Numbered from the stretch's first letter, positions 471-61,589 are shown. The stretch: 64,000 nt of DNA from Microgenomates group bacterium Gr01-1014_5 (GCA_007376395.1 VMGE01000006.1:2812-66811); one strand, 5' to 3'. The notes: generated by a model not told the origin, from the sequence alone. A program made the numbers and translations.

Positions 471-506
471 AAGATAAAGATACAGAAACAGACACAGATA
501 AGCAAC

Positions 507-860: not shown

Positions 861-877
861 TTTCCGTATCTGTATCT

Positions 878-1933: not shown

Positions 1934-1945
1934 ATACCCATTGTA

Positions 1946-2386: not shown

Positions 2387-2494
2387 AATTTACAATTTAC
2401 AATTTTTAATTTTCATTCAAGTCTCAATAACTCAATGTTTAAAACATTTTAAAATTGAAAATTCATTGAAAATTGAGAAATGAAAATTTTAAAT

Positions 2495-3184: not shown

Positions 3185-3223
3185 GATTAAGGATAAGTAG
3201 TCAGTTGTGGGTAGTGAGAAATA

Positions 3224-32790: not shown

Positions 32791-33882
32791 ATGGTTATTC
32801 TTGGAATTGAAACTTCCTGTGACGAAACAGCGGCTTCAGTCGTAAAAGACGGAAGAGAAATTTTGTCTCATGTACTGGCAACTTCTGTACAGATGCACAT
32901 AAAAACTGGCGGCATTATTCCCGAAAAGGCTGCGCGTGAACAAGTGAAATCAATAATCCCAGTGATAGAAGAAGCACTTCTCCAGGCTTCAGGGGCTGGA
33001 GGCTGGAGGTTAGAGCCTGGGTCATCGTCTAATCTCCAATCTCTAATCTCTAGTCTCGACTGCATCGCCGTCACCTACGGTCCGGGGCTTATTGGCTCTC
33101 TTTTAGTGGGAGTAGAAACCGCCAAAACTCTTTCGTATCTTTGGAAAAAACCCGTTGTTCCCGTTAATCATCTCACTGCTCATATTTATGCAAACTGGCT
33201 AACCGGTAACCCGACAAACCGGAACCTGGAACCTGAATTGCCTGCTGTTGCACTGGTTGTCTCAGGAGGACATACAGATCTTGTTTACTTAAAAAATCAT
33301 GGTCAGATGGAATATATCGGAGGAACGCGCGACGACGCCGCTGGGGAAGCTTTTGACAAAACAGCCAGACTCTTAGGTCTTCCCTATCCCGGCGGACCAG
33401 CGATAGCCGCTGCTGCATCCCACTACCCACTACCCACTACCCACTACCAATCTTTCTTACCTCGGCCGATGATTTCCAATAATAATTTTGACTTTAGCTT
33501 CTCTGGCTTAAAAACAGCCGTGCTTCGCGAAGTATCTAACTTCCAACATCCATCTTCCAACCTCCCGCTTCCAACATCAGCTTTCGCATACGAAATTCAG
33601 GAAGCAATTACCGATGTTTTGGTCGAAAAATCTTTACGCGCGGTAAAGCAATATAAGGCAAAAACTTTTCTTTTAGCGGGCGGAGTCGCGGCAAACTCTC
33701 GCTTGCGCGAAAAGTTTGAATTAAGAATTAAGAATAATAAATTAGGGATAGATTTCAGGGTTCCTCCTCCAGAGCTTTGCACAGACAACGCCAGCCCTAT
33801 TGCCGCTTGTGCTGAATTTAACTATCACCCCCTCTCTTGGCAACAAATATCTGCCAATCCAAACTTGAGTATTATGAACTGA
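32791..33882 (+). CDS. tsaD: tRNA N6-adenosine threonylcarbamoyltransferase TsaD (Kae1/Gcp)
   Basis: MVILGIETSCDETAASVV..., HLxAH and GGVAAN motifs. It carries in-frame low-complexity inserts encoded by heptanucleotide tandem repeats. Confidence 0.9.
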   Translation: MVILGIETSCDETAASVVKDGREILSHVLATSVQMHIKTGGIIPEKAAREQVKSIIPVIEEALLQASGAGGWRLEPGSSSNLQSLISSLDCIAVTYGPGLIGSLLVGVETAKTLSYLWKKPVVPVNHLTAHIYANWLTGNPTNRNLEPELPAVALVVSGGHTDLVYLKNHGQMEYIGGTRDDAAGEAFDKTARLLGLPYPGGPAIAAAASHYPLPTTHYQSFLPRPMISNNNFDFSFSGLKTAVLREVSNFQHPSSNLPLPTSAFAYEIQEAITDVLVEKSLRAVKQYKAKTFLLAGGVAANSRLREKFELRIKNNKLGIDFRVPPPELCTDNASPIAACAEFNYHPLSWQQISANPNLSIMN

Positions 33883-35282
33883 TGGTCAACCCAGCATTTT
33901 TACGCCTTCTGTGTTACTTTTTAGTCTTTTTTGTTTTTTTCTTACCACCTATTGACACTGATTTGGGTTGGCATTTGCGCTACGGCAACTTCATGCTTGA
34001 AAACCAAAGGCTTTTTATTCCCAACCAGCTAACTTACTTCCTCCCCGACTATGTTTGGCCTAATTCTTACACTCTTTATCAAATTTTGACTACGGTTTTA
34101 TTTAATCTGGGAGGCTTGTTTTCCCTGAGCGCGGCTTATGGGTTTTTAGGTGTATTTTCTTTCTGGCTTTTCCAGAAAATTTCCCCTAAAAATCTTTTCG
34201 CCTCTTTGAGCATCTTTTTATCTATCGTCTATTTCGGGCAAGTGGTTTTTAACCTTGGCTGGAGAGCGCAAGTTTTTAGTTTTACATTTTTAATCGCAAC
34301 TTATCTCACAGTTAAACAAGTGCTTGCCCACAACTCTTTCCCTCGATTTTTCCCCTTAATTTTTATCCTTTGGGCCAACTTGCACGGAGGGTTTGTTTTA
34401 GGACTTTTTGTCCAAGGGGCGGCTCTTGCTCAAAGCATCTTTGACAGAAACAAGAGAGTGGCAAAAACTCTAGCTCTTACTCTTACTCTTTCTGCTTTGG
34501 CAACTTTCTTAAACCCCTACGGAATAGGTGTTCACCAGGAAGTCTTAAACCACCTACAAACCTCTTTAGGCGGAATTATTGCCGAGTGGACTGCCCCGTC
34601 TTTTTGGTACACAGGCTTTGTTCTCTTCGTTACTCCGGTTTTGCTATTTTTTTCCTATTACAAAAAGAAAAACTTCATTTTTTGGACAATTTTACTGTGC
34701 ACCTTCGCTCTTATGGCCATAACCGCTAAACGCAACTTAAGTGTTTGGGCGCTATTTGCCGGAATTTGTACACTCGAGGTTGCAAAAACAGAGATTAAAA
34801 CTTGGTCTAAAAAACTTGCTTTTCAAAGAATAGCCACAGCTATTCTTATTATTCTTGGCTTAAGTATTATTTCTGCCAATATCCCTCGAACATTGGATTT
34901 AACTTTTAACTGGTCGAGTTTCTGTACCAAAGGTTTGCGCGTCATGCCGTGCGAAGCCGTAAATTACATTAAAAAATATCCACCGGAAGGAAAAAACGTT
35001 TTCTCGTCTTATGAGTGGAGTGGATTTACTGCTTGGCAATTACCCCGCTATAAATATTTTGTCGACGGACGCATGCCTGCTTGGACTATACCAAGCCCGT
35101 ACACGACTCACCTTGAAATAATGCGGGCGCAGGGTGACTTTTTGAAAAAATTGACAGACTACAAAACCGATTGGCTGTTAATTCCAGCTAGTTCCCCGCT
35201 AGATTCATATCTAACCAAAAACCAGACTATTTGGAAAGAAAAATACAGAGATAAAACGAGCGTCATTTATACTAAATTGTAG
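33882..35282 (+). CDS. polytopic integral membrane protein, putative GT-C-type glycosyltransferase
   Basis: About 12 TM helices then a ~130-aa soluble C-terminus. The start overlaps the tsaD stop (TGATG). Confidence 0.45.
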   Translation: MVNPAFLRLLCYFLVFFVFFLPPIDTDLGWHLRYGNFMLENQRLFIPNQLTYFLPDYVWPNSYTLYQILTTVLFNLGGLFSLSAAYGFLGVFSFWLFQKISPKNLFASLSIFLSIVYFGQVVFNLGWRAQVFSFTFLIATYLTVKQVLAHNSFPRFFPLIFILWANLHGGFVLGLFVQGAALAQSIFDRNKRVAKTLALTLTLSALATFLNPYGIGVHQEVLNHLQTSLGGIIAEWTAPSFWYTGFVLFVTPVLLFFSYYKKKNFIFWTILLCTFALMAITAKRNLSVWALFAGICTLEVAKTEIKTWSKKLAFQRIATAILIILGLSIISANIPRTLDLTFNWSSFCTKGLRVMPCEAVNYIKKYPPEGKNVFSSYEWSGFTAWQLPRYKYFVDGRMPAWTIPSPYTTHLEIMRAQGDFLKKLTDYKTDWLLIPASSPLDSYLTKNQTIWKEKYRDKTSVIYTKL

Positions 35283-35299
35283 TATAGTTGTTATTATAA

Positions 35300-36019
35300 A
35301 TGGATATTCTGCCTGCCCAGGAGTTTCCCGAAATTACAAGCCGCTTTAGTCGGAAAAAACTTCTTCTTGTCTTTTTCATTATTATCTTTCTCGTAATCGG
35401 TATTTTTATCGTTGCGCCATTTATTGCCGAACCGACTTCTCCGCCAAAAGAAATTTTTATTACCAATATTACCGACGGACAAGCGACAATAACTTGGTCT
35501 ACAGATAAACCGACAAAAGGAACGGTTAAGATTCAAAAGGATATTTATAAAGACGATGGAGATAAAAACAAAAAAAGCCAGGGGTTTTATGCCACACACC
35601 TTGTAACAATCGGCGCCTTGCGACCTGCCACTTCGTATAATTACGAGATTTATCAAGGCTGGAGAAAAGTTTCTGAGGGTTCGTTTACAACAGCAATTAT
35701 TTTAAACTCAATTAACAACCCCAACCCTGTCTATGGCCGCGTCATTGACTCATCAAACAGACCGCAAGTCGGAGCAATTGTCTATTTGACTGCAAAAAAT
35801 CAAAACGGAGAATCAGCGCTTTACTCGACTTTGACCAACAACGAGGGACGTTGGCAAATAGATCTAGCCAACTTTCGCACCCGTGATCTAAAAGCTCCGT
35901 TTAATTTAAACACTGAGACAGTTCAAGAAGTGGTTGTGCAAACAGGATTCCGCGGCAAGTTTAAAGCCGCGACAGATATGGATAACGATCAACCCTGGCC
36001 GGATATTATTGTAAATTGA
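35300..36019 (+). CDS. membrane-anchored FN3-like domain protein (paralog of 40278..41501)
   Basis: TM anchor, then ITNITDGQATITWSTDKPTKG (fibronectin-III/purple-acid-phosphatase N-terminal-like), YGRVIDSSNRPQVGAIVYL, NNEGRWQIDLANFR, MDNDQPWPDIIV. Confidence 0.5.
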   Translation: MDILPAQEFPEITSRFSRKKLLLVFFIIIFLVIGIFIVAPFIAEPTSPPKEIFITNITDGQATITWSTDKPTKGTVKIQKDIYKDDGDKNKKSQGFYATHLVTIGALRPATSYNYEIYQGWRKVSEGSFTTAIILNSINNPNPVYGRVIDSSNRPQVGAIVYLTAKNQNGESALYSTLTNNEGRWQIDLANFRTRDLKAPFNLNTETVQEVVVQTGFRGKFKAATDMDNDQPWPDIIVN

Positions 36020-36021
36020 TT

Positions 36022-39000
36022 ATGCAAAATTTTTCCAAAAACGTTTTTGTCCAACTTGTAAATTTGCTTCTAATTTTTAATGTTGTTTTTTCTTCTTTAG
36101 CGCCATCCTTAGTCTATGCGCAAAACACAGGAGAGTATGACGGAGGAGGAAATGCCGGAGATGACGGCGGAGGAGACAGTGGAGACGAAGGAGATTCTGG
36201 ATCAGATGAGGGTAACACAGGTGACGGAGGAGACGTAGACAACGGAGCGGCAGATGCCGAAACCGGCAACAGTGGAGTGGAGCAAGAAGGAAATCTCGGC
36301 AGCTCAGGGGACGAGGGCAACACCGGATCTGAAGGAAGCGGAGACGGAGGTAATACTGGTGGCGGTGGTGGTGGAGAAGGAGGAAATGCCGGAGATGAAA
36401 GTGGAAATGCAGACAGCGGCAGCTCAGGGGACAGCGGAGGCGGAGGTAATACCGGAGACAGTAGAACACCAACACCCACTCCTGTCTCAGGGGGAACAGG
36501 AAATACTGGCAGTTATGAGCCGAGGTCATACATTTCAGTAACCTACAGTTGCGGGGGGTGGGCAAACGGATGCTCAAATCGGGCCATGGATTGCCGGGTC
36601 TTCAACGGACAAATTGAATCTTGCGGAGGGTGTTACTGCATGGATGCCTCTGTTAACACCCCACCTTCTCCTTCATCTTCAGCACCTGAGGGAAATACCG
36701 GTGCAGAGCCGACACCTACACCAACTCCACCCACACCCGTGCCAACAATAAACGTTGAGGCAGAAGCACTTACCGCAACTGGCAATACCGGAACAGGGGG
36801 TAATATAGGTATAGAGCCTATCGTTCCGGTTACTTCGGATGAAACACAAAGAGCGGCAATTGCGGCGGCGCTTGCCGCAACACAGGCAACCACAATTGAC
36901 CTTATAAACCGGCAAGTCCGCGAAGCCGGTAGTGGAAACACCGGAATTGACCACACGCTTGCTTCAGTCCCAGATAATGTTGGCAATCTTGGCTCGCAAG
37001 TAGCTTCTGCAATCTTTGACCCTTTGGCAGATTTCCGATTACCAAATATTTTTAGTTCAAACTCAGATTTAACTGAAGCAGAAAGGCAAATTAACGAATT
37101 AGACGCAAGACTCGCTCAAGAGAGAGAAGAATTAAACCGCGACTTTTATAATCCCAATAACCCTTTATCTGCCCTCCGCTTGCTTGTTCCCAACGGAGAA
37201 AATAATAATGACCCCTCTGCTCTTTTTGGCCAATTTACGTCTCAAATGGGGAACGCCGGGGTTCGTGTAGAAGGCAATGTCGGAGAACCTTCTTTTAGTC
37301 TCGCGTGCCTGGACGCCGACTGTTTTCTAAGTAAGCTCGGCTCTACTCATCTCGCAACTCTACCGTTACTAGGAAACGTAACGACTGAGGGAGCAGTAGA
37401 TTTTTTTGCCAGCTCTGCACTGGAACTAAACCGGAAAAGCGCAGAAACCTCAAAAGTTCTTGGTGAAGCAAAAGACTTATATAACCAAGCAGGGGTAAGC
37501 GCGAGAATGCGAGCGTCCCAGCCAAATCCTTGCGACACAGATCCCAGCTCAACACAATGTTTAACTTTTTCAACTTTTTCACAAACTTCACCTAATTTAG
37601 CCTTAGAACTTCAAAGAGATAAAGAGCTATACCCCGACGACACCTTAACACCAGAAGAAGTCGCCGCAAGAAACGCTCTTGAAGCAAAGCTCGACGAAGC
37701 CGCTCAGATGGCTTATGACGGCGCAATAGAAACAGCCGCAATCGTAGCAATGACTTATTTTGGAGGTCCGGCTCTCAATAAAGTGGGTGGGTTCATAAAA
37801 GGCGTAGGTGGAAAACTTGTCGGATCTGCGAGTGATTTCCTACGACCAGCAGGAGGAATATTTGATGATTTAGTAACGGGAGGCCGAAGGGTTTTTGGCA
37901 CAGCAGACGATCTTCCAATGCCGGCACATGCCGTTATGCATTCCGTACAGTCAGTAGATGACTATTATGTACCGCCGTTTGCCAGATCTGTCGACCCCGA
38001 AGAAGCGCGAGAAGCGGGTATGAGAATATTTAACAGCGAGGCGCTTCACGACGACGATTTGTTAAGAGTTTCCCATTGGATCCGCAACGGTCAAGGATTG
38101 CCCGACAATGGCTTAAGCGACGATGTTGTCAATTTTGCAAAAAGAGTTTCTGACGATTTAATGTCTTCTTTCGTACCTGACAATAACGGCGGTTTTAGAC
38201 TATCACCAGTTTCAAAAATAACTGAAGCAAAAAGGGCGGTAATTAACGCTCTTGAGCACGAAGGAAATACTGGGCTAATTGTATATAGTCAACGGGCTAT
38301 TAGCGAAGATGAGTACCGCGAATTAGCCGAGCGCTCATTAGACGCAACCATAAGAAACAGACAAAATCAGGAAAAGTTGAGGGGGGCTGTGGAAGAAGCT
38401 AGAAAAATTGCGACCACGATGAACGACTCGCTTGGGGGTTCGGCAAGCGATATCGCCAGACGACAGACCGACATTGAATCTGCTTACGATTTAAGCAGGT
38501 TTCATTCAGCCTCACTTGAAAGCCGACTGGCAGGAAGTAGCGGCGAGGCAGTAGGTGGATTCTTTATTCCAAGAACCGGCCAAATATCTATAACTGAAGG
38601 AACAGGTCTATCTCCTTTGCCGACAATTGTTCACGAGTGTAGACACACTTGCGATTTTTTATCTAGCCCGCAACATTTTAATGATTTGACGCGTAGATTC
38701 GGGAAGCCAGCGGCAGTGGCACTTAACGAAGGAAGAGTTGCTAGTTTTGAAGTAGATGCATTAAAAATCAGTAAATATAATCAGAGCGCAAGTGACGCGA
38801 GTGCGGCACATACTCAAGCATTCCAACAATATAAACAAATATTTGAGGAAGGTATTGTACCAGAGCTGGCAAAAAGAGAAAACGTAACTATTGACGAGGC
38901 CCGTAAAATCACATACAGGGATCCTTCTGCTCTTGATAAAATAGACGATAAAAAAATCAATGAGATTTTAGACCAATTCGGAATCTCGAGAAATAGTCCT

Positions 39001-40272
39001 CCTGAAAAAGAAACGAATAAATTAATAAAGGTGGGAATTGCAACAGCCGGAACAATAACAGCGGTAATCTCTCTTGCGGCAGGGGCAGATCTTTACTTAA
39101 GCAAAACGGGTACTTCACAAGCCACTACCCCAACACCGGTTCCGACACAGAGGCCTGACTTATTAAATTTATTCAACTTTACTAAGAAGGCGTTCGCTCA
39201 AGAGGAATCTAGCAATTCTATATCCACACAACAGCCTTTTGACCTTGCTGTTAAAAAAGAGCTTGTAAAACACATAATAAACACCACTGGTAAAGTTGGC
39301 TTTGAAGATGTCGCTCAAGTTTTAGAGGCAGATACGCTGGAACCTAGGTTTAACAGAATAAGTGAAGGGTATAAATTTACCACTGGAAGCGCCGGCGTTT
39401 CTTGGGGATTGGTTGACAAAGACTTATACTCTGTTGTTCTTGAAGGAATACCCGGCATCGACATACAAACTCCTTTGATTGTTGATGCCAAAAACAATTC
39501 TACTGTTTTAATCCCAATCTCGATATCTAAAGGGAGCGGAAAGGTCGAATCTAAGCCGCAAGGATCAGAAACTTCCCTAATAAAAACAGCTTATGCGCAA
39601 GAAAACGATAATGCCCTTGCAAACGGCAAAACCAAAGTGCAGGTTTTGCTTTTTCAAGACGAAAATAGGAACGGGAAATTTGACACTAGCGATGCGGTTT
39701 TGCCTTGGGCAAATCTTATCGTTAAGCTTAAAGGTTTAAATAACAAGAAGGATATATTCTTAAATCAAGGTTGGAATCTGTTTACTTTAACAAACCTTCC
39801 TTCCAGTCCTCTTACTGCAAACGAATTGTTGCAAGAAATTGCTAAACAGAACGGTTATGCAACGACGGTTTCTACTTTGGAAAATGGGCTTTGGAAGTCA
39901 TATGTTGTCCGGGGAGATAAAACCTACTCAGGAGAAGACTTCCCTATCGTTCCGGGCAGGGCTTACTTTGTTAAAGCACTAAAACAGTCTGTCTTTACTT
40001 ACCAGGGCCAAGAGTTTGTTGCACCTGTTGATTTAACCCTCAATGAGGGATGGAACGCTGTCGGACTGCCAAAAACTTCTCAGGAATATAAAATTTCAGA
40101 CGTTTTGTCAAAACTGGACTCGTCAGGCGCTGACGCCGCAAGCCGCTGGGAATCAGGTCTTTGGGATAGTTTTGTAACTAAAAACAAAGAAGATTACGGA
40201 GAAAACTTCCCAATTGAAACAAACCGCGGCTACATTATCCGCGTTAGAAAAAATACTGCGTTTACGCCTTAA
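36022..40272 (+). CDS. giant surface protein (about 1416 aa) with an acidic Gly/Asp/Ser-rich N-terminal region, a recurring GNTG motif, an internal HExxH motif and two C-terminal ~90-aa repeats
   Basis: Signal-like N-terminus. Nine or more (E/G)GNTG motifs. IVHECRHTCD (HExxH). An internal TM segment (VGIATAGTITAVISLAAG). The C-terminal repeats are LNQGWNLFTL...FPIVPGRAYFVKA and LNEGWNAVGL...FPIETNRGYIIRV. The track starts at TTG 36016; ATG 36022 is more likely. Confidence 0.7.
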   Translation: MQNFSKNVFVQLVNLLLIFNVVFSSLAPSLVYAQNTGEYDGGGNAGDDGGGDSGDEGDSGSDEGNTGDGGDVDNGAADAETGNSGVEQEGNLGSSGDEGNTGSEGSGDGGNTGGGGGGEGGNAGDESGNADSGSSGDSGGGGNTGDSRTPTPTPVSGGTGNTGSYEPRSYISVTYSCGGWANGCSNRAMDCRVFNGQIESCGGCYCMDASVNTPPSPSSSAPEGNTGAEPTPTPTPPTPVPTINVEAEALTATGNTGTGGNIGIEPIVPVTSDETQRAAIAAALAATQATTIDLINRQVREAGSGNTGIDHTLASVPDNVGNLGSQVASAIFDPLADFRLPNIFSSNSDLTEAERQINELDARLAQEREELNRDFYNPNNPLSALRLLVPNGENNNDPSALFGQFTSQMGNAGVRVEGNVGEPSFSLACLDADCFLSKLGSTHLATLPLLGNVTTEGAVDFFASSALELNRKSAETSKVLGEAKDLYNQAGVSARMRASQPNPCDTDPSSTQCLTFSTFSQTSPNLALELQRDKELYPDDTLTPEEVAARNALEAKLDEAAQMAYDGAIETAAIVAMTYFGGPALNKVGGFIKGVGGKLVGSASDFLRPAGGIFDDLVTGGRRVFGTADDLPMPAHAVMHSVQSVDDYYVPPFARSVDPEEAREAGMRIFNSEALHDDDLLRVSHWIRNGQGLPDNGLSDDVVNFAKRVSDDLMSSFVPDNNGGFRLSPVSKITEAKRAVINALEHEGNTGLIVYSQRAISEDEYRELAERSLDATIRNRQNQEKLRGAVEEARKIATTMNDSLGGSASDIARRQTDIESAYDLSRFHSASLESRLAGSSGEAVGGFFIPRTGQISITEGTGLSPLPTIVHECRHTCDFLSSPQHFNDLTRRFGKPAAVALNEGRVASFEVDALKISKYNQSASDASAAHTQAFQQYKQIFEEGIVPELAKRENVTIDEARKITYRDPSALDKIDDKKINEILDQFGISRNSPPEKETNKLIKVGIATAGTITAVISLAAGADLYLSKTGTSQATTPTPVPTQRPDLLNLFNFTKKAFAQEESSNSISTQQPFDLAVKKELVKHIINTTGKVGFEDVAQVLEADTLEPRFNRISEGYKFTTGSAGVSWGLVDKDLYSVVLEGIPGIDIQTPLIVDAKNNSTVLIPISISKGSGKVESKPQGSETSLIKTAYAQENDNALANGKTKVQVLLFQDENRNGKFDTSDAVLPWANLIVKLKGLNNKKDIFLNQGWNLFTLTNLPSSPLTANELLQEIAKQNGYATTVSTLENGLWKSYVVRGDKTYSGEDFPIVPGRAYFVKALKQSVFTYQGQEFVAPVDLTLNEGWNAVGLPKTSQEYKISDVLSKLDSSGADAASRWESGLWDSFVTKNKEDYGENFPIETNRGYIIRVRKNTAFTP

Positions 40273-40277
40273 ATATA

Positions 40278-41501
40278 ATGCTTACTCTGCTCAAAAAATA
40301 TTGGCTCGTACTCTTAATCCTTGCTCTCCTTGTTGTTGCTTTACCGGGAGGAGTTTACCTTGCTACAAATCAAACCTCTTTCTTCGGCACTGCTTCGCCA
40401 GAGGAAACTCCAAAGGAAGTGAAAATTACCAATATTTCCGATAACTCTTTTTCTGTTTCTTGGGTAACTCCAGACAAGCAAAATCTAGGTTTTCTTGCTT
40501 ACGGCGAGACTGAACGTTTAGGCAACTCTGCCAGTGATGACCGGGATACTTCCGGAACCCAAGAACGCTACACCCATCACGTTTCTCTCAAAAACCTCTT
40601 ACCATCTACAAACTACTTTTTCAAAATTGGTTCTGGTTCAAAGGAATACGATAATGACAGCAGCTCTTATCAAATTACAACTGCTCCCACCACTACCGAT
40701 CCCCCTCCTTTGGCCGACCCGGCATACGGTAAAATCCTAACTCCGCAAGGCGCGCCCGCAACCGATGTTTTGGTTTATTTAACTGTGGACAGAGGCACTC
40801 CCCTCTCAAGCTATACCAGAAACGACGGCAACTGGTTAATTACTTTAAACAATGCCCGCCGGGCTGACCTTTCCACTTATATTTCCTACAAAGAAACTGG
40901 GGATAATATCTCCCTCTTGGTGAATGGTTCAAATTTGGGCAGGGCAACCGCTAATGCCGATACAAACAACGACAACCCAGTACCGGACATTACCCTTGGC
41001 CAATCATATGAATTCGGAACCTTGGGGTCTGCTCCGCAAACGACCACGGCGCCTGTTGCAGAATCCGCGCCTTCGTCGTTTAGCCTAGAACCTGTCGCGA
41101 ACGTGCAAGAAGCAAGCCCGAGCGCCCTTGAAATCCAAACTCCGGCGGCAGAAACCGCAATCTCCGACTCCACTCCAACTTTTACAGGAACAGGTAAGCC
41201 TGGAGAGATTCTAGATATTATTATTGAAAGTAATCCTATTCGAGCCAAGGTCACAGTCGGTGCAGACGGGACATGGGCTTACACTCCTACCCAAAACCTG
41301 GAATCCGGAGAACATAAAGTTACAATCGCCCAAGCCGGACAAACAAAGACTCAAAATTTCTCGGTGCTTGGAGCCTCAACTGCCAAACCTTCTACAGCCA
41401 GTGCTATTCCTGTAAGCGGTACTTTCGAAAACACGCTGGTTATTTTCGGGTTTGGTTTACTGTTCACACTTCTTGGAAGTTTTCTCATCTTTTACAAATA
41501 A
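40278..41501 (+). CDS. membrane-anchored FN3-like domain protein with C-terminal extension and C-terminal TM anchor (paralog of 35300..36019)
   Basis: ITNISDNSFSVSWVTPDKQNLG, YGKILTPQGAPATDVLVYL, RNDGNWLITLNNARR and ADTNNDNPVPDITLG align with the upstream paralog. It ends in the hydrophobic LVIFGFGLLFTLLGSFLIFYK. Confidence 0.55.
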   Translation: MLTLLKKYWLVLLILALLVVALPGGVYLATNQTSFFGTASPEETPKEVKITNISDNSFSVSWVTPDKQNLGFLAYGETERLGNSASDDRDTSGTQERYTHHVSLKNLLPSTNYFFKIGSGSKEYDNDSSSYQITTAPTTTDPPPLADPAYGKILTPQGAPATDVLVYLTVDRGTPLSSYTRNDGNWLITLNNARRADLSTYISYKETGDNISLLVNGSNLGRATANADTNNDNPVPDITLGQSYEFGTLGSAPQTTTAPVAESAPSSFSLEPVANVQEASPSALEIQTPAAETAISDSTPTFTGTGKPGEILDIIIESNPIRAKVTVGADGTWAYTPTQNLESGEHKVTIAQAGQTKTQNFSVLGASTAKPSTASAIPVSGTFENTLVIFGFGLLFTLLGSFLIFYK

Positions 41502-52087: not shown

Positions 52088-53476
52088 ATGGACACTCAAA
52101 AACTTTGGAAAGATGTACTTGAAACAATTAAAGTTTCTGTTTCGGGAGCTAACTATTCTACTTGGTTGTCCCAAACTTTTATTATTTCAGTCAAACCAGT
52201 AGGAGAAACAGGTCTACCTGCCGATAGGCAGGTCGTCGAAATCGGCTGTCCAAACGCTTTTATTGCCGACGGGTTGGAAAAAAGGTATTTTACGCTTATC
52301 CAAGACTCTCTAAACCAGGTTACGGGTATAAAAAACGAGGTAGTCTTCAGTGTTCAACAAATCCAAAATGAAACAAAAAAAACAATTGAGTCTCCTTTGT
52401 TTTCCCAAAATTTACAAAGTGAAGAAAAATCTTTAGAAGACGATTTAAAAAAAGCACGAATCCGCCCAGGGTTTACTTTCGAAAACTTTGCCGTCTCCTC
52501 GTCAAACCAAATGGCCCACGCCGCGGCCGATGCTGTTTCTAAAAACATCGGGAACGCCTACAACCCTTTGTTTTTTTGGGGAGGAGTGGGTATAGGAAAA
52601 ACCCATTTAATGCTGGCAATAGGCAACTATTTTTTGCGCCACAATCCTGACGGAAAGGCACTTTACGTTATGGGTGAAGAATTTACAACAGAGATTGTAG
52701 AAGCCATTAGAAATAAAAATACACAAGAGTTCAAAAAAAGATACCGCAGTTTAAAGCTTTTAATGCTTGACGATGTACAATTTATCGCTGGAAAAGAAAA
52801 GGTGCAAGAAGAATTTTTTCACACCTTCAACACTATTCTGCGCGAAGGGGGACAGGTGGTATTAACTTCTGACCGGCCTCCAACAGAAATTCAAAAATTA
52901 GAAGACCGCTTAAGAAACAGGTTTGAAGCAGGGATGATTGTCGACATTTCTCCTCCTGATTTTGAGTTAAGAACGGCGATTTCTTTAATTAAAGCCCAAC
53001 AAAAGGGGATGATGTTAGACATGGATGTGGCCCAAGCCATCGCCGCCAACATAGACAACCCGCGCAAAATCGAGGGTTTTTTGACAAGACTACTTGCCGA
53101 AACCAATAGTTTTAAAGAAAAGATTACGATAGAGCTTGTTAATAAAATCTTAGGGAAAACAAACGGCGTCTTAATTACTCCCCAAAGAAAAGCAACACTG
53201 CCGCAAGAGCTCATCGACGCTGTTTGTGATTATTTTTCTTTAGGAAAAAGAAAACTCCTTAGCGATACACGCACGCGTCCCGTTGCCCACCCGCGGCAAA
53301 TCCTTATGTATCTCTTACGTGTTGAACTTGGCCTGCCTTTACAAGAAGTTGGTAGGCTTGTTGGAGGACGCGACCACACCACCGTTATGCACGCTGTGGG
53401 CAAGATATCTACAAACTTATCCACAAACGGCGGGTTGAGGGATGATATTTTGGGGATAAAAAAATACATTTCTTGA
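52088..53476 (+). CDS. dnaA: chromosomal replication initiator DnaA
   Basis: AAA+ Walker A GGVGIGKTHL, box VII, and a C-terminal DNA-binding domain. Confidence 0.95.
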   Translation: MDTQKLWKDVLETIKVSVSGANYSTWLSQTFIISVKPVGETGLPADRQVVEIGCPNAFIADGLEKRYFTLIQDSLNQVTGIKNEVVFSVQQIQNETKKTIESPLFSQNLQSEEKSLEDDLKKARIRPGFTFENFAVSSSNQMAHAAADAVSKNIGNAYNPLFFWGGVGIGKTHLMLAIGNYFLRHNPDGKALYVMGEEFTTEIVEAIRNKNTQEFKKRYRSLKLLMLDDVQFIAGKEKVQEEFFHTFNTILREGGQVVLTSDRPPTEIQKLEDRLRNRFEAGMIVDISPPDFELRTAISLIKAQQKGMMLDMDVAQAIAANIDNPRKIEGFLTRLLAETNSFKEKITIELVNKILGKTNGVLITPQRKATLPQELIDAVCDYFSLGKRKLLSDTRTRPVAHPRQILMYLLRVELGLPLQEVGRLVGGRDHTTVMHAVGKISTNLSTNGGLRDDILGIKKYIS

Positions 53477-53731: not shown

Positions 53732-54835
53732 ATGAAAGTAAAAGTTTTACAAGAAGATTTACTAAAAGGTTTAAGTTGTGTCTCGCGTTTTGTTTCAGTA
53801 CGGGCACAGCTTCCTGTTTTGTCAAACATTCTTCTAAAAGCCGAGAAAGGGAAACTTAAACTAGGAGCTACAAATTTAGAAACGGGAATTGTTTTTGAGG
53901 TAGGCGCAAAAGTAGAAGAAGACGGACTACTTACCGTACCTGCAAAAGTTTTACTCGAACTAACGGCTAATTTACCCCCAGGACAAATCACTCTATCCTC
54001 AGAACAAGAGCAGTTAAAAGTGTCTTCTGGTTCGTTCCAAGCCCAACTATCCGGAATTTTAGCTTCTGAATTTCCTTCCATTCCAGACAAACTAGACCAC
54101 ACAGATTTCACCATCTCTGGAGATGTATTGCAGTTAATTAATAAACAAGTGGTCTTTGCCGCGGCCCAAGATGACTCTAGGCCTATTTTAACCGGAGTTC
54201 TGTTTAAATTTTCTGAAGATAATTTAAGAGCTGTAGCCACAGACGGATTTAGGCTTTCATCCAAAGAGCTCGTTTTTAAAAAAATAGCCGCAGACAAAAA
54301 AACCTTACTTGTACCAGCCAAACTTTTAGACGAGCTCTACAAAATAGTAGGAGGACAGGAGATAAAAGTCGCACTCATGGAGCGCGAAAAACAAATAATG
54401 TCAGAAGCCGAGTCTTTGGTGCTTACGGGGAGGCTTTTGGAAGGGGACTACCCGGATTTTGAAAGAATTATCCCCAAAAACACTCCTCATAAAGCAAGCG
54501 TCGACAGGGAGGCTTTTGTCCGTGCTATACGCGCAGCGGCTGTTTTTGCCCGTGAGGCCTCCGGTATTATTAAATTGGTCATGGAAAAAGACAAGATTAT
54601 AGTTGTCGCCGAAAGTCCTCAATACGGTCGTGAAGAGTCGGAAGTAGAGGCGAGGGTTGAAGAGGGAGGAATTACAATAGCTTTTAACTACCGCTATATA
54701 CTTGATTTTTTAAATTCAGTCACCGGTCAGGAAATATCAATAGAAACCGAAGGGCCAACAGCACCTGGTGTTTTTCGCGACACAAAAGACCCGTCTTATC
54801 TTCATTTGATTATGCCGTTCAAGATTCAAAACTAA
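53732..54835 (+). CDS. dnaN: DNA polymerase III beta sliding clamp
   Basis: 367 aa, MKVKVLQEDLLKGL... with a three-domain beta-clamp layout. Confidence 0.9.
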   Translation: MKVKVLQEDLLKGLSCVSRFVSVRAQLPVLSNILLKAEKGKLKLGATNLETGIVFEVGAKVEEDGLLTVPAKVLLELTANLPPGQITLSSEQEQLKVSSGSFQAQLSGILASEFPSIPDKLDHTDFTISGDVLQLINKQVVFAAAQDDSRPILTGVLFKFSEDNLRAVATDGFRLSSKELVFKKIAADKKTLLVPAKLLDELYKIVGGQEIKVALMEREKQIMSEAESLVLTGRLLEGDYPDFERIIPKNTPHKASVDREAFVRAIRAAAVFAREASGIIKLVMEKDKIIVVAESPQYGREESEVEARVEEGGITIAFNYRYILDFLNSVTGQEISIETEGPTAPGVFRDTKDPSYLHLIMPFKIQN

Positions 54836-56245: not shown

Positions 56246-57889
56246 TCAGGAACCATACCAAGAGAAGTGTTTTCTTTGAGGAAGATTCCGTGGAATAGGG
56301 TGATGGCAAAAAACACCAAAAAGGCAAGAATGGCAAAAAACAATAGCCGTCCCGACAGGTCCAAGAGTAACGCCCGCAACCTTGGCAACCAAAAGACCGA
56401 CATTTTTAAGTACACCACCGGCGTGTTTGAGTTGAGCAAGTGCCAAAGATGCGCTTGCCCCCCCTGCCGCAATTGCCATAGGTGTGGGTAGGAACGGAAT
56501 GCTTGCCGCCAGAGCTCCGGACATTGACCAGCGCAGCCAGCCAATGTTGGGGTTAGTAAACAACTGGCGCAGTTTTATCGAGAGGGAGGAGAGGAGGTTT
56601 TGCCGTATCCTTTTAGCCTCTTGTCCAGCAAAGCGTGTTGCTTGTTCTGCCGCAAAACCTTTTTCTTCTAAGGTTTGCCTTAAATGCCCGGGAAGCGACG
56701 AGATTAAGCTTTCTTTAGTCTCTCTTCGTTTTTCAAGGCTCTGGGTTGTTTCGTTAAATTCAAGCCTTTGTACTTGGTCTGCCACCTCGTCTAAGTTTTG
56801 GAGCGCCTGTTCTAAGTTTTCAGGAGTGACGAAATCAACACTTTCGAGCGCTATACCCGTCTCGATTAATTGCTCAACCCTGTTTTCTATTGCCTGGAAA
56901 ATTGTGGAATACTTCCGGTAGTTTTGCGGTTCGTCCGTTTTAATCCTTGCAAGTTCTGATCTAATTAACTGTAAACTGTCCTGCGTTGGGTCTTTTTGTT
57001 TACCAAACCAGGAAAAAGGCGAAAGTTGCCCGGCAAAAGTTCTCCAATACGGCTGTCCCCGGTATATAAGATAAAGATGTTCTTGTTGTCTCGATGCTTG
57101 GCGCTCCTCTTGTTTTTCCGGTTGTTGGTCTTCTTCTCGTGTTTGCGCCCGGATTGGCCTTGGGGTTTTGACATACGGTGAAGGAGTGCTCGACGGCGCA
57201 GTTTGCAGGCGCTCTGTGATTTGTTCGACTTGGGCACGGGTAACAATGGCGCCGCGCCTGGAGAGAAAAGTTTCAACTCTTTCTTGTAAGGCTTGCGGGC
57301 TTAAAACCAGTCCCTCACCTGTTGTTAGTTTGACGTATTGGTTAATTTGCTCGGCTGTTTGTTTGGCGATATTTTCCTCAACACCCGCCTCACGGATTAT
57401 AGCCTCAATGTTTTTAAGGCTGTCTTGCTCGGCAAAATCTGCAATACGGTCTCCTAGAGCCTCTTCCGGCAGATCTGGGCGAATAGGAATAAGAGAAGGG
57501 CTTTCTCTTTGGTAGACAACCGCTTCGGTTTTAAGCCGGGCAAGGTTTTCTTTAATTTGCAGGGCTTGATGCTCGCGCCAGCTTGTATCGTGGAGAGCTT
57601 TTTCGCGCAGAAATTTCTCATGGCTTTCGATAAGAATTTTTAACTGATCGGCGTTGGGGACTGCGGCAGTTGGTAGCGCCTGCTCATTTAAACTTGCGAG
57701 GCTCTCAAGCCGGTCCAGAACAACCCCGATCTCGTTGGTGTTGAAATAAAGCTGGCCATAAGCCGTCAAAAGTTTTTGGTAATTTGCCAAAGTAAAACCT
57801 TCGACCTCTTCCTTGTTAAAACGGGTGAACTGCTGGTAATTATTTAAGAGCTCGCGGGCGATGTTTGGAGTGAGGATTAAATTGTCCAT
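56246..57889 (-). CDS. large coiled-coil protein with hydrophobic C-terminus, associated with the T4SS-like cluster (VirB6/TrbL-like role possible)
   Basis: About 440 aa of helical, charged sequence then hydrophobic segments. Its 3' end overlaps an alternative-frame hydrophobic ORF (56029..56544) near an A6 run at 56331-56336. Confidence 0.4.
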   Translation of the reverse strand: MDNLILTPNIARELLNNYQQFTRFNKEEVEGFTLANYQKLLTAYGQLYFNTNEIGVVLDRLESLASLNEQALPTAAVPNADQLKILIESHEKFLREKALHDTSWREHQALQIKENLARLKTEAVVYQRESPSLIPIRPDLPEEALGDRIADFAEQDSLKNIEAIIREAGVEENIAKQTAEQINQYVKLTTGEGLVLSPQALQERVETFLSRRGAIVTRAQVEQITERLQTAPSSTPSPYVKTPRPIRAQTREEDQQPEKQEERQASRQQEHLYLIYRGQPYWRTFAGQLSPFSWFGKQKDPTQDSLQLIRSELARIKTDEPQNYRKYSTIFQAIENRVEQLIETGIALESVDFVTPENLEQALQNLDEVADQVQRLEFNETTQSLEKRRETKESLISSLPGHLRQTLEEKGFAAEQATRFAGQEAKRIRQNLLSSLSIKLRQLFTNPNIGWLRWSMSGALAASIPFLPTPMAIAAGGASASLALAQLKHAGGVLKNVGLLVAKVAGVTLGPVGTAIVFCHSCLFGVFCHHPIPRNLPQRKHFSWYGS

Positions 57890-57894
57890 TGTTC

Positions 57895-59484
57895 TTACTT
57901 AACTTCTTCAACCTGATAAATTGGCTTATTTACGGTGATGGGAATAGCTGTTGGGGTGGGTATGGGTGTTTGCATCTCTTGTTCTTTACGTTGGCGCAGT
58001 AAGACTTCTTCCGGCTTGGTAGAGATCAGGGTGTGTTCTTCTTCTGAGGCAACAATACGTAGGGCAACGTGGTTTGGGCCGGCAAAAAAGATACCTTCGC
58101 CAACGTCTGCCGCGAGCAGGAGCTGTTTTTCTCCCTCCGAGAGTTTAAAGACTTCAGCAACGCGCTCAATGGCGGCAGGGGACTGTTTCATTAATAGTTT
58201 GAGAGCAGAATTAGTTACAATTGCCTTGCCTATATCCTGAGACAGGAAATCTTCTACGTCTTGGGTGATAGTTATCAAGCCCAGGTAGTATTTACGGGAA
58301 CGTTTGGCAACAGAATAAAGGAATTGGGCTGTATCCGGGTAGCGCATCATGTGCCAGGCCTCGTCAACAATCAGGAGGCGTTTTTTGAGATCGCGCTTAA
58401 TACGGTTCCAAATAAAATCTAAGATAACAAACATGGCGATTGGACGGAGAGTCTCTTCTAAATCGCGCACGGAAAAAGTAGTAAACGGATTTTTTAAATC
58501 AATATTAGTGTGCTGGTCAAAAATTCCGGCAAAAGAGCCTTTAATAAATTTTTCAATGCGGTCGGCGAGCGAACGGGCAATGGGATCCTCCATTCCTAAA
58601 AGAGTTTTATACAAATCTTCCATTAAAGGCGGAGTCTTGGTTTGAGTCTGGGGGTCTGGAGTAATCCCTTTTGCTTTGTAGGTTGCGATAAACGCCCGGT
58701 CTAAAAGCGCCTCTTCTGTCGGGTTGAGTTTGCCCATAATAACCGAGAACAAAGAGTGTAAAGAAAGTATTTTTAAACCCAGAGTGCTTTCTTCGGGATC
58801 TGCAACAGGGGTTAGTTCAAAAGGGTTAATTTTAGCCGGCGAGTTAAAAGAAAAAGAAATAAATTCTCCGCCAACCGCTTCTGTTAAAGGTTTGTATTCC
58901 GCCTCAGGGTCGATAATAAAAACTTCTGTTCCGAGCATTAAGGAACGTACAGCTTCCAGTTTAACAGCGTACGACTTTCCCGCGCCTGAAGTAGCGAAGA
59001 TTAAAGAATTATAGTTTTCCAGCCGAAAACGGTCAAAAATAACCAACGAATCGTTGTCTTCGTTAATTCCGTACAATACTCCCCGGTCTGAGCTCAACTC
59101 GGCAGAAACAAAAGGAAAAGTAGTAGCAAGGCTGGTAGTGTCCATATTGCGGGTTATGGATAATTTATCTATTCCCAAAGGGGTTGTTGAGAGTAAACCG
59201 TCTTCCATTTGCAGGGCGGTAAATTTTGCCACTATTAATAAAGAACCGAGCGTAGATTGTACTTGGTGAGTGATTTGGTTTAAGTCTTCCAGTGAATCAG
59301 CAGGAATTGTAATATAAAAAGAAAACTGAAAAAAGCGCTCTGCGCCTTTAACTAATTGTTCCTGCAGATCTCTGGCGTCTTCGAGTTTTGCCTGTGTTCC
59401 CGGATTAACTACTCTTCCGCGTTGTAAATCTGTGGCAATTTCTGCTTCCATCTCGGCAATTTTGCGCCGTAAATCGTCCAACAC
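57895..59484 (-). CDS. virB4: VirB4/TrbE/CagE-family conjugative-transfer ATPase, C-terminal portion
   Basis: Walker A ATSGAGKSY and Walker B LLIVDEAWHMM. The frame stays open upstream to a stop at 59674-59676 (...IFVGGYPRFVSPGWLDPI..). Confidence 0.8.
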   Translation of the reverse strand: MLDDLRRKIAEMEAEIATDLQRGRVVNPGTQAKLEDARDLQEQLVKGAERFFQFSFYITIPADSLEDLNQITHQVQSTLGSLLIVAKFTALQMEDGLLSTTPLGIDKLSITRNMDTTSLATTFPFVSAELSSDRGVLYGINEDNDSLVIFDRFRLENYNSLIFATSGAGKSYAVKLEAVRSLMLGTEVFIIDPEAEYKPLTEAVGGEFISFSFNSPAKINPFELTPVADPEESTLGLKILSLHSLFSVIMGKLNPTEEALLDRAFIATYKAKGITPDPQTQTKTPPLMEDLYKTLLGMEDPIARSLADRIEKFIKGSFAGIFDQHTNIDLKNPFTTFSVRDLEETLRPIAMFVILDFIWNRIKRDLKKRLLIVDEAWHMMRYPDTAQFLYSVAKRSRKYYLGLITITQDVEDFLSQDIGKAIVTNSALKLLMKQSPAAIERVAEVFKLSEGEKQLLLAADVGEGIFFAGPNHVALRIVASEEEHTLISTKPEEVLLRQRKEQEMQTPIPTPTAIPITVNKPIYQVEEVK

Positions 59485-59693
59485 TGTTTTTCCTTCAACG
59501 GGGTAGATAAAAAAAGAAAGGTCAAGGGAATGGTCAAAATTAATAATCGGATCAAGCCAGCCGGGAGAAACAAAGCGCGGGTAGCCGCCGACAAAGATAG
59601 TGCGCAGATATTTATCGTTTATTTTAATAGGGAGTTCCCGCGGCAGGAACCGCCTCGCTAAGGCTTTTGGCTTTCACGAATGGTACGCTAAGA

Positions 59694-60389
59694 TTAAACA
59701 TTGACCGGAACCTCCTTGCCGTTTTCTAACTTACCCTGAGCTTGTCGAATGGGTCGTCCGTCAGTCCGGTAGATATTATGGAAAAGCCGTGCTACCTCCT
59801 CGGTGGTGAGCTGTTGGACTTTAATTCCTAGACGCCCGGACTGGCGGATAACGTGGTCGCGTCTTGGAAAAAGCACGGTTTTGGCCTTTTTTAAGACATA
59901 GTCTTTGGGGTAAGGAACAGATCGTTGGCGGCGGGTTAGCGTATTAACCATTCCTGTTGTGGAAATTCCAAGTTCAAAAGGGGAGAAGGGAATAATAATA
60001 AAAAAATCTTTTTCTAAAACATTTCTCTTTTTGACAATTTGCGCAACAAAGGTTTGGTATGAGCCAATCAAAACTTTAAGTTTAGCGTTTGTCTGCTTGT
60101 CTGCCTCTTCTTTTAAGTAGTTAAGGTAGTTGGTGACATCTTTTTTTTGCGAACGCACTAAAATTTGGATTGCAAAGGAAAGCGAGTTTAAAAAAGCCGA
60201 ATACGCGTAAGTAATTGCTTCTTGTTCTTTTTCGGATAATAAAGAAAAGTTTAAGGCCGAAGCGCGCATAATGATTGCCGCTCCGCCTTCTTTTGTCAGC
60301 AAGATGTCGTCTGTAATGTCAGCAATTAAAATATGCTGTTGGGTGGTAGAGCTGATAGGCACAACCTTTGCTGGTTTAAGATTTAGCAT
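59694..60389 (-). CDS. virB4: VirB4-family N-terminal domain fragment (separated from the ATPase portion by a frame change)
   Basis: 231 aa resembling the VirB4 N-terminal region; its stop at 59694-59696 is in a different frame from the downstream ATPase ORF. Confidence 0.6.
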   Translation of the reverse strand: MLNLKPAKVVPISSTTQQHILIADITDDILLTKEGGAAIIMRASALNFSLLSEKEQEAITYAYSAFLNSLSFAIQILVRSQKKDVTNYLNYLKEEADKQTNAKLKVLIGSYQTFVAQIVKKRNVLEKDFFIIIPFSPFELGISTTGMVNTLTRRQRSVPYPKDYVLKKAKTVLFPRRDHVIRQSGRLGIKVQQLTTEEVARLFHNIYRTDGRPIRQAQGKLENGKEVPVNV

Positions 60390-60391
60390 TT

Positions 60392-60489
60392 TTCAAATTT
60401 CTAATTATTCTAATTGCTCTAATTTCTAAATAAATCCCAATTGTCCAATTTTTGGGTCAATTAGAAATTAGGTTAATTAGGTCAATTTT
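60392..60489 (-). repeat. ~95-nt dyad-symmetric intergenic repeat element, copy B (immediately upstream of the virB4 N-terminal fragment)
   Basis: Relative to the downstream gene it has the same orientation as copy A: aaaattgacctaattaacctaa...attagagcaattagaataattagaaat. Confidence 0.7.
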
Positions 60490-61589
60490 CATAGTTGTCT
60501 GGCTTTTATCTGTATTGGCGGAATCAGCCTTCCTTCGGCTTGAAATTGTATGGGGTCAAAAGTCAAACCGTCTTTTTCGGTCATGAGTTCGTAGCCGCCG
60601 TTTTTCAAGGGAGTTACGGTCATAAAGTGGCCAACTCTGTTGCTTCTAATTGCGCGGACAGGAGTTTTTGAAACAGAATCAATAATTTCCAAGATTGCGC
60701 CTTCGACGATTTTACCTTCGGCGGTTAAAACTTGTCCGACAATTGTGTTGGGAATTTCAGGAGGAGAAGGAGGCGCGGCCTCTGGACTAAAGACTGCCTG
60801 GGCGACAACCTGTCCGCTGCCTGATTGGTTTGCAAAAACAGGCGAAAGAGGTTGGATTGTTTCCTGTTGGGGCGCTTGCTGATTTTGGACTAGTGCAGAG
60901 TGTCCTACTTTTACAACTTGTTGAACCGGCACGGGCATGGCAGTATCTTCCGGCCGCACTGACCGCATATTTGGCGCGACTTGCTGTGCTATTTTTTGTC
61001 CCTGTACTTCTTGAGTAAGCACCATTCCTTGGGTAAAAGGTTCTGCTTGGCTTTTTACTCCCCCTGACATGGTGTTTTGATTAAAGGTTGTATTTGCACC
61101 CGATGTTGCTTGAGGAATTACGGCAAACATGGCGCTAACCTTTGAGAAAAAGTTTTTCTCTCCTTGTTCAAATTTTTTAACTTCTTCCGACTGGCCTGCC
61201 CCGGTCAGATCAGAGTCTGTTGTTGACAAGGTAATTGGTGTTGTGTCGGAAGAGGTAGATTTAGCAAAGACATCTTCGGCGCTATTTGCGTCCCAGGTGT
61301 AAAGGGTTGGTGAATAAATTGCTTTAACAAAAGCAAGAACCCATTGAGAAAGCGGACGTTCTTCTATTGGTAAAAATGCAAGTGCCGCTCCAAGTAGGCC
61401 AAAGAGTAGTACCAGAGGCCACTTGATAACCCCTGGCAAGGGGGTAGCATAAAAGATGAGTGATACTGTAATACCCCCGGCCAACTGGAAGAATTGCTTG
61501 AGGGTCATGTCTCCGACAAGCTTAAATTCATAGCTAGAAATGTGTTGCGGTACAGGATGCTGCTGCATTGCGACGAAGTCGCAAAACAT
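60489..61589 (-). CDS. PrgI/VirB3-like T4SS membrane protein with long Gln/Ser/Thr-rich C-terminal extension
   Basis: N-terminal HISSYEFKLVGDMTLKQFFQLAGGITVSLIFYA matches the PrgI-family signature; it lies directly upstream of virB4. Confidence 0.5.
   Translation of the reverse strand: MFCDFVAMQQHPVPQHISSYEFKLVGDMTLKQFFQLAGGITVSLIFYATPLPGVIKWPLVLLFGLLGAALAFLPIEERPLSQWVLAFVKAIYSPTLYTWDANSAEDVFAKSTSSDTTPITLSTTDSDLTGAGQSEEVKKFEQGEKNFFSKVSAMFAVIPQATSGANTTFNQNTMSGGVKSQAEPFTQGMVLTQEVQGQKIAQQVAPNMRSVRPEDTAMPVPVQQVVKVGHSALVQNQQAPQQETIQPLSPVFANQSGSGQVVAQAVFSPEAAPPSPPEIPNTIVGQVLTAEGKIVEGAILEIIDSVSKTPVRAIRSNRVGHFMTVTPLKNGGYELMTEKDGLTFDPIQFQAEGRLIPPIQIKARQL

Follow-up and report, generated by a model that had tools for sequence, protein, structure and literature searches.

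Polymorphic toxins are large secreted multi-domain proteins that combine a constant trafficking part with exchangeable enzymes (PMC3482391). MARTX toxins have conserved ends around variable central enzymes together with a built-in protease, and proteins exported with the C-terminal domain (CTD) of the type IX secretion system (T9SS), as well as cellulosomal dockerin enzymes, are diverse enzymes with a signal peptide and a constant C-terminal domain. Sortase-anchored proteins of Gram-positive bacteria have an N-terminal leader, Ig-like or FN3 domains, and, at the C-terminus, a PxxG motif with a hydrophobic stretch and a basic end behind it (PMC4617865). In addition, type IV pilus genes support the secretion of a folded protein through the Gram-positive wall in Clostridium perfringens (PMC11580942), and type IV pili, a type IV secretion system (T4SS) and surface proteins with FN3, dockerin and VCBS domains are essential for epibiotic growth in a cultured Saccharibacterium (PMC10633639; reviewed in PMC12857230). 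Here, a three-gene cassette (genes A, B and C) is compared with these systems. It lies in a 64,000-nucleotide (nt) window (GCA_007376395.1 VMGE01000006.1:2812-66811) from Microgenomates group bacterium Gr01-1014_5, an uncultured, ultra-small member of the Candidate Phyla Radiation (CPR), and is one copy of a cassette conserved in the Microgenomates (Blackburnbacteria, Daviesbacteria and the Gr01-1014_5 lineage). In this cassette, two FN3 envelope proteins flank a giant protein with a constant C-terminal module and a variable interior, which in the giant of the window contains a predicted zinc peptidase.

The initial annotation of this DNA had described a giant gene bracketed by two paralogs, and all three open reading frames (ORFs) were found where it had placed them:

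35300..36019, + strand: gene A (239 amino acids, aa), ORF, the upstream, A-type paralog
36016..40272, + strand: gene B (1418 aa), ORF, the giant
40278..41501, + strand: gene C (407 aa), ORF, the downstream, C-type paralog

Gene B has two candidate starts, TTG at 36016 (1418 aa) and ATG at 36022, two codons on (1416 aa), and its product is 100% identical to a 1416-aa NCBI protein (P0001) of the Gr01-1014_5 metagenome-assembled genome. The start of B overlaps the stop codon of A (TGA, 36017-36019) or adjoins it, and gene C begins 5 nt after the stop of B, a head-to-tail, operon-like packing; a scan for promoters and terminators gave a signal no higher than background. Every related locus fetched was scanned with two profiles, one for the FN3 family and one for the C-terminal module of B, and a search for loci based on a narrower alignment contributed four genome loci and four metagenome loci. 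The order A-type gene, giant, C-type gene was found in the window, in the locus of a 76%-identical relative of B (L001; protein P0002), in two Blackburnbacteria (L002/L008 and L011, the latter with a giant of 3553 aa), in two Daviesbacteria (L009 and L010), and in L019, L020, L021 and JGI 3300071358, while in L014-L017 a giant or a stand-alone module gene is followed by a C-type gene. A C-type gene comes after the giant in 14/14 related loci and an A-type gene before it in all of those with enough upstream sequence (10/10), and the overlap of the A stop with the start of the giant recurs in several of these triads. The genes on either side differ from locus to locus (ValRS, PPDK/enolase, ribosomal L11/L1, MreC/PBP, FemAB and UvrD). 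The paralog-giant-paralog synteny, which the initial annotation had proposed to look for elsewhere, holds in every related locus examined amid unrelated flanking genes, and its view of a dedicated envelope or cell-surface module is likewise supported. No paper describing the cassette or its module was found in the literature, and no notable PHROG matches pointing to a phage or defence origin were obtained.

The giant is made up of the following segments, several of them predicted:

36016..36120, + strand: B aa 1-35, predicted signal peptide ending VYA/Q (from hydrophobicity and homolog N-termini)
36121..36825, + strand: B aa 36-270, acidic Gly/Ser/Asp/Asn-rich low-complexity spacer
36532-36645, + strand: B aa 173-210, 6-Cys knot within the spacer, YSCGGWANGCSNRAMDCRVFNGQIESCGGCYCMD
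36826..38091, + strand: B aa 271-692, lineage-specific region, no domain recognised
38092..39015, + strand: B aa 693-1000, predicted gluzincin-type zinc metallopeptidase domain
38632-38646, + strand: B aa 873-877, HECRH motif
38728-38730, + strand: B E905, predicted third zinc ligand
39022..39087, + strand: B aa 1003-1024, moderately hydrophobic Gly/Ala/Thr-rich segment
39160..39207, + strand: B aa 1049-1064, junction motif like the signal-peptide end of the family, LLNLFNFTKKAFAQEE
39169..40269, + strand: B aa 1052-1418, family-defining C-terminal module
within the module: B aa 1065-1180, helical segment and beta-sandwich
39586-39606, + strand: B aa 1191-1197, second junction copy, TAYAQEN
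within the module: B aa 1205-1245, beta unit with a DxNxNGxxD Ca-loop-like motif
39751-40020, + strand: B aa 1246-1335, alpha/beta repeat R1
40021-40269, + strand: B aa 1336-1418, alpha/beta repeat R2

The family to which B belongs comprises proteins of 1000-3500 aa and is defined by the ~365-aa module at their C-terminus. For example, only aa 1053-1418 of B align with a giant from Blackburnbacteria (47% identity, E=1e-94), along with a weak match between the signal peptides, and the ~1000 residues between signal peptide and module do not align. An exhaustive HMMER search with aa 290-1418 of B as the query returned 1089 cluster representatives at E<=1e-3, of which 490 reached E<=1e-10 and 73 reached E<=1e-30, and the matches always lay at the C-terminus of proteins of ~1000-3100 aa, the weakest spanning only the last ~210 aa. 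In a word-indexed search, only two matches were obtained with full-length B because of an excess of low-complexity candidates, and three with the module alone. An AlphaFold2 model of the module (predicted local distance difference test score, pLDDT, 79.9) consists of helices, a beta-sandwich, the beta unit with the DxNxNGxxD loop and two alpha/beta repeats. These are the two ~90-aa C-terminal repeats noticed from the sequence at the outset, and R1 and R2 (~85-90 aa) indeed share 34% identity (E=3e-14).

Directly upstream of the module, B carries what the initial annotation had called a metalloprotease-like HExxH motif, and this motif proved to be real and conserved. In an alignment of the domain with 19 homologs at 13-23% identity to B and a relative at 71%, the sole invariant columns were H873, E874, H877 and E905, the signature of gluzincins. 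The last of these lies 28 residues past H877, on helix 205-226 of the model, and the third-ligand Glu would be expected within a range of ~18-70. The AlphaFold2 model of the domain (pLDDT 85.7, predicted template modelling score 0.85) has a three-stranded sheet, the HExxH helix and a next helix that bears E905, in a thermolysin-like catalytic fold. The HExxH of B is thus predicted to be a conserved gluzincin active site with an intact HExxH...E, and B to be a zinc peptidase. However, the domain shares only 12-16% sequence identity with thermolysin-like gluzincins (MEROPS clan MA(E): M1, M4, M30, M3 and M9), B gave no Pfam or NCBIfam match at E<=1 and no sequence match in the PDB, and 27 homologs matched no peptidase family at E<=0.001. 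By motif and modelled fold it is therefore classed as a putative gluzincin outside every named family. A homologous ~300-aa domain is present in 23/109 large members of the giant family, with an intact HExxH in 22 of them, and is lacking in the other 86/109; its end nearly always lies 350-450 residues from the C-terminus, with the module following directly.

Sister giants carry other enzymes in their interior, and every one of these domains has the signal peptide on one side and the constant module on the other. In Pfam scans that covered 27 giants, AvrPphF-ORF-2, a HopF2-type ADP-ribosyltransferase (ART), was matched in two members (in P0129 at 1022-1150, with 74.8 bits against a cut-off of 25), and Tox-ART-HYD1 in P0105 at 705-816, with 23.7 bits, just under the cut-off of 25. 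The matches to Pkinase, ABC1 and RIO kinase were weak, as were those to PP2C, PP2C_2 and SpoIIE, each found in one member. By local search, the HYD1-like domain was also detected in P0100 (the giant of a Blackburnbacteria triad; E=3e-50 against P0105), P0102 and P0225, and the AvrPphF-like domain in P0128, P0133 and P0135, giving four giants per ART type. The HYD1-like domain of the Blackburnbacteria giant is identified through similarity to P0105 only; a PARP-like 'LFHGT...GSGFYTS' motif in the same giant, read by eye and without tool support, is not claimed. ART and peptidase domains occur together in P0102 and P0135, and the peptidase is the only recognisable enzyme in the B of the window. 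The presence of NAD- and ATP-dependent enzymes on Sec-exported proteins suggests a target inside another cell.

Towards its N-terminus, B follows the pattern of its family. The hydrophobic segments of B are at residues 9-35 and 1003-1024. The N-termini of 60 homologs have signal peptides, often of the form ..LNLIFSSFYPvLvYAQ[DE], followed by an acidic low-complexity stretch, with an S[FL]YP motif in 18/50 and a YAQ-type ending in 22/53. In B, the corresponding end is ...SSLAPSLVYA/QNTGE, followed by 235 acidic Gly-rich residues, which fits this pattern; with its Sec-type signal peptide, B is predicted to be exported. The spacer contains 36 D+E against 4 K+R, 61 Gly, PT linkers and most of the GNxG motifs, and is the segment that varies most between B and its 76%-identical relative (64% identity, 43 gaps); acidic spacers behind the signal peptide are common in the family, with a median net charge of -10 per 100 aa. 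The 6-Cys cluster is nearly unchanged in the same relative despite many surrounding indels. The initial annotation had described the first ~160 aa as almost pure Gly/Asp/Ser/Glu, whereas they are rich in Gly, Ser, Asp, Asn, Thr and Glu; similarly, of the (E/G)GNTG motif reported at least nine times, the nine GNTG copies stand (2000 shuffles gave a maximum of two and none at nine), but only 6/9 are preceded by E or G. The broader motif GN[TALSV]G occurs 16 times. Since the GNxG codons vary synonymously and the DNA has no tandem repeat, the repetition is a feature of the peptide; the motifs are aperiodic, and an RTX-like or contingency-repeat origin was rejected (no Pfam RTX match, no tandem repeat in the DNA of B, synonymous codon variation). 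GNTG was counted zero times in every family member checked except P0002 and is therefore lineage-specific, and neither it nor the Gly/Asp-rich stretch is a family feature.

Between spacer and peptidase, aa 271-640 are 90% identical to P0002 and were judged more conserved than the housekeeping neighbours (80-93%), and aa ~524-692 are the only part of the region at aa 271-692 with distant homologs. The hydrophobic segment at aa 1003-1024 had been read as an internal transmembrane segment. Most homologs have no such segment, it adjoins, on the upstream side, a junction resembling a relic signal peptide, and it is unlikely to be a real membrane anchor.

This junction belongs to a motif that recurs at set positions in the giants. 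In B, the copies VYAQN, AFAQE and AYAQE are at aa 33-37, 1059-1063 and 1192-1196 (nt 36112-36126, 39190-39204 and 39589-39603). Across the family, [VIATL][YF]A[QATD][EDQN] occurs at a background of 0.05 per 1000 aa in the variable regions, and is found at the signal-peptide end in 22/53 giants, at the module start in 14/53 and at the boundary between beta-sandwich and Ca-loop in 15/53, an enrichment far above tenfold at these positions. A few stand-alone module proteins of ~384 aa carry their own signal peptide, and in these genes the true signal peptide is at the second junction position, which makes it possible that the junctions are fusion relics, processing sites or both; the [VA][YF]AQ[EN] junctions of B could be a processing site, a fusion relic or a recombination junction. 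In two metagenomic contigs (L015 1077-2231 and L016 432-1586), a separate 384-aa module gene comes directly after ORFs that resemble the ends of payload genes; the giants therefore occur in both split and fused forms.

The two flanking proteins were confirmed as paralogs (BLASTP E=3e-18, 29% identity across 209 aa), with an alignment that takes in the YG(R/K)(V/I)...VYLT and D.(D/N)ND.P.PDI blocks. Their features are:

35357-35425, + strand: A aa 20-42, N-terminal membrane anchor
35438-35692, + strand: A aa 47-131, FN3/PAP-N-like domain (sub-threshold Pfam Pur_ac_phosph_N and fn3)
35729-35941, + strand: A aa 144-214, CarboxypepD_reg-like beta-sandwich (sub-threshold Pfam CarboxypepD_reg)
+ strand: C aa 1-31, leader/transmembrane segment
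40407-40682, + strand: C aa 44-135, FN3/PAP-N domain (Pfam)
40713-41012, + strand: C aa 146-245, beta-sandwich, followed by a Thr/Pro/Ala linker
41154-41363, + strand: C aa 293-362, Big_13 Ig-like domain (Pfam)
41406-41498, + strand: C aa 377-407, putative LPXTG-like sorting signal (IPVSG, hydrophobic stretch and K)

Protein A has its sole membrane anchor at the N-terminus and, beyond the beta-sandwich, nothing other than a conserved tail (DMDNDQPWPDI); its Pfam scores for Pur_ac_phosph_N and fn3 (24.4 and 21 bits) are under the cut-off. Protein C is above the Pfam thresholds for Pur_ac_phosph_N (50.6 bits, cut-off 30), fn3 (30.5 bits, cut-off 25) and Big_13, and ends in IPVSG, 20 hydrophobic residues and a single K. 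The resemblance of this end to a sorting signal, noted at the outset, extends to its relatives, as 62/76 long C-type homologs have [LIVTA]PxxG, a hydrophobic stretch and a basic end 25-31 aa past the motif; Big_13 also occurs in the long forms. In layout, protein C resembles sortase-anchored Gram-positive proteins, including the canonical spacing past the motif, but its family differs in the motif itself, which is [LIVT]Px[SA]G in the long forms instead of LPXTG. Short C-type forms end in a dockerin-like DxNxDGxhNxxD loop in 8/15 cases.

What the initial annotation overlooked in C is a link between C-type proteins and type IV pilus genes. In four loci of other Patescibacteria (L004, L006, L012 and L013), the gene order is S20, pilN, pilO, a small ORF and a C-type FN3 gene, so that the C-type gene holds the position after pilN-pilO that pilP/pilQ hold in the diderm pilMNOPQ arrangement. 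No homology of C-type proteins to PilP or PilQ was detected, and the genes of the window differ in that they flank a giant and not pil genes. When the family was placed in a neighbour-joining tree, all A-type proteins fell into a single clade and the C-type proteins of the triads clustered with the pilN/pilO-linked FN3 proteins, which makes the duplication of A and C an old one and assigns C to the lineage linked with the pilus. Genes for the cell wall (VanW, MurJ, FemAB, LytR and MreC/PBP) abound in the neighbourhoods as well.

Set against the described systems, the cassette resembles the polymorphic toxins in its logic and in its toxin domains. Its relatives share toxin families with them (Tox-ART-HYD1 and HopF2/AvrPphF-type ART), with a zincin peptidase alongside. 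However, in the giants the C-terminal 365 aa are constant and the variation is internal, no immunity gene follows B, the conserved gene C starting in its place, and the constant partners are two FN3 envelope proteins and not a type V, VI or VII secretion system (T5SS, T6SS, T7SS) or Rhs. With no variable C-terminal toxin and no immunity gene, the cassette lacks two defining features and is not classed as a polymorphic toxin. The likeness to MARTX toxins is an analogy only, since B has no RTX/glycine-repeat (HemolysinCabind) Pfam match, carries a predicted gluzincin instead of a cysteine protease, and would be exported by Sec instead of a type I secretion system. Similarly, the module would, like the constant domains of T9SS CTD cargo and cellulosomal dockerin enzymes, dock to dedicated envelope partners, but it has no sequence or fold similarity to them, and the organisms that encode it are monoderm-like CPR bacteria.

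The reading that is tentatively favoured, at somewhat under even confidence, is that A and C may be an envelope scaffold for docking or exporting a giant whose enzyme payload is exchangeable, by a mechanism that we infer as follows. Protein A in the membrane and protein C in the cell wall would form a scaffold that goes back to an accessory protein of type IV pili. It would bind the constant C-terminal module and either hold the giant at the surface or help its passage through the wall; the acidic, disordered spacer would extend the variable part outward, and the variable interior would be an exchangeable enzymatic payload for another cell, presumably the host of a putative episymbiont. In Gr01-1014_5 the payload would be the metalloprotease, whose substrate may in addition, or alternatively, be the giant itself, cleaved at the conserved [YF]A/Q[ED] junctions. 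A more far-reaching version, in which the cassette would be a CPR-specific system for effector display or delivery, with A and C as duplicates of a type IV pilus accessory protein, Sec-exported giants, the module as a docking or secretion tag and the interior as a host-directed payload, is conceivable but doubtful.

Several points count against a scaffold that docks or exports the giant. No structural match to the module was found, and the only clues to its role are that it is strictly C-terminal, highly conserved, and conserved together with A and C. The variable part is internal, unlike that of classical polymorphic toxins, and the cassette contains neither an immunity-like gene nor an evident device for translocation. 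For ART, kinase and PP2C domains, the evidence was obtained in relatives and not in the B of the window, and two of the matches are under the Pfam cut-off. The pilus link consists of gene neighbourhood in other lineages only, with no pil genes among the window ORFs scanned. Finally, the putative sorting signal of C is a variant form (IPVSG with a single terminal K) and matched no NCBIfam LPXTG-anchor model at E<=1, and no sortase was found among the window ORFs scanned, which cover only 64 kb of the genome.

Three other explanations draw on the same observations. The giant could be a surface adhesin or holdfast, tethered to the wall and held by the FN3 proteins, with its repeats or acidic region binding the host and the protease remodelling the host envelope locally. 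All three proteins are predicted to be exported or anchored, Ig-like, FN3 and Big_13 domains are typical of adhesins, cell-wall genes are abundant nearby, and a cultured CPR bacterium cannot do without adhesins and FN3/dockerin proteins (PMC10633639). With diverse hosts to bind, however, an adhesin would be expected to vary in what is here the best-conserved part, the module, B has no long arrays of adhesin repeats, and the NAD- and ATP-dependent enzymes in the variable part of its relatives make little sense extracellularly. Such a role is therefore considered unlikely; nothing points specifically to the adhesion that the initial annotation had offered as one function of the locus, and the sister giants carry ART domains and weak kinase/PP2C matches within the same constant ends, which speaks for an enzymatic payload and not for an adhesin. 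The finding of C-type genes after pilN-pilO in four loci, clustering with the triad copies, instead brings to mind a pilus-coupled, type II-like export, in which A and C are accessory parts that push the folded giant through the wall and B is a free scavenging protease of an auxotrophic cell. This is in keeping with the precedent for such export across a Gram-positive wall (PMC11580942) and with the intact gluzincin domain, but the absence of pil genes among the window ORFs scanned, the apparent anchoring of C in the wall and not in a membrane platform, and the ART, kinase and PP2C payloads of relatives, which are unfit for nutrient scavenging, make it quite improbable.

Least probable of all is that the HExxH domain serves only for self-processing, cutting at the [YF]A/Q[ED] junctions and freeing the N-terminal part from the anchoring module, with aa 271-692 as the true functional part. 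The peptidase is nearly always directly upstream of the module, P0102 and P0135 combine it with an ART, the junction motifs are tied strongly to their positions, and releasing peptidases are known in polymorphic toxins (PMC3482391). However, the 86/109 members without a peptidase include some that still have junction motifs, and the junctions look equally like relic signal-peptidase sites from gene fusion, since stand-alone module genes exist.

Other features of the window and of the related loci were recorded alongside. A gene for a 481-aa polytopic membrane protein (33837-35282, + strand), belonging to no Pfam or NCBIfam family, ends 17 nt upstream of gene A, so that co-transcription with the cassette is possible; the close relative L001 has it ahead of A too, but the other triads do not have it there. 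Type IV secretion-like genes at 56246-61589 (- strand), 15 kb from the cassette, include a VirB4/TraG P-loop ATPase (57895-59484; PF19044, E=1.5e-27) and a PrgI-family protein (60489-61589), with ORFs without a Pfam match beside them, among these a 547-aa ORF at 56246-57889; they resemble the Patescibacteria T4SS reported to be essential for epibiotic growth (PMC12857230). A second giant ORF (13156-18420, + strand; 1754 aa) with three DUF5667 domains (E=1e-38) lies in a GC-rich stretch (0.48-0.50 versus about 0.42) and was rejected as a paralog of B, to which it has no relation. A gene for a PF05635 four-helix-bundle '23S rRNA intervening sequence protein' is at 61652-62032 (- strand), and a gene of a similar-looking type, judged by eye only, lies between the module gene and the FN3 gene of L015 (2305-2661). 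In JGI 3300071358, an extra 104-aa ORF with no Pfam match, between the 2748-aa giant and the FN3 gene, is the sole immunity-like candidate in any triad, and the metagenomic contig of L020 has a UvrD-type helicase gene with an intein (391-3351; PF14890) near the triad. The replication origin is probably at ~52-56 kb of the window, because dnaA (52088-53476) adjoins dnaN (53732-54835) and the minimum of the cumulative GC skew is in the same interval.

How CPR bacteria (Patescibacteria) act on their hosts is largely unknown, and the Microgenomates are without any culture. The cassette offers concrete, expressible parts, namely an intact but unclassified, predicted zinc protease, a new module found on hundreds of giants and two envelope partners. 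Through these partners the system is connected with type IV pilus genes, without which cultured relatives cannot live as epibionts. The ART domains and other exchangeable payloads suggest an arsenal of toxins or effectors whose organisation, with its constant C-terminus and lack of an immunity gene, departs from that of classical polymorphic toxins. Should the idea of delivery prove wrong, three families for which Pfam has no model (A-type protein, module and peptidase) have still been defined, along with a conserved gene triad that can be used for annotating CPR genomes; if it is right, the cassette would be the first candidate host-manipulation effector system defined for the Microgenomates.

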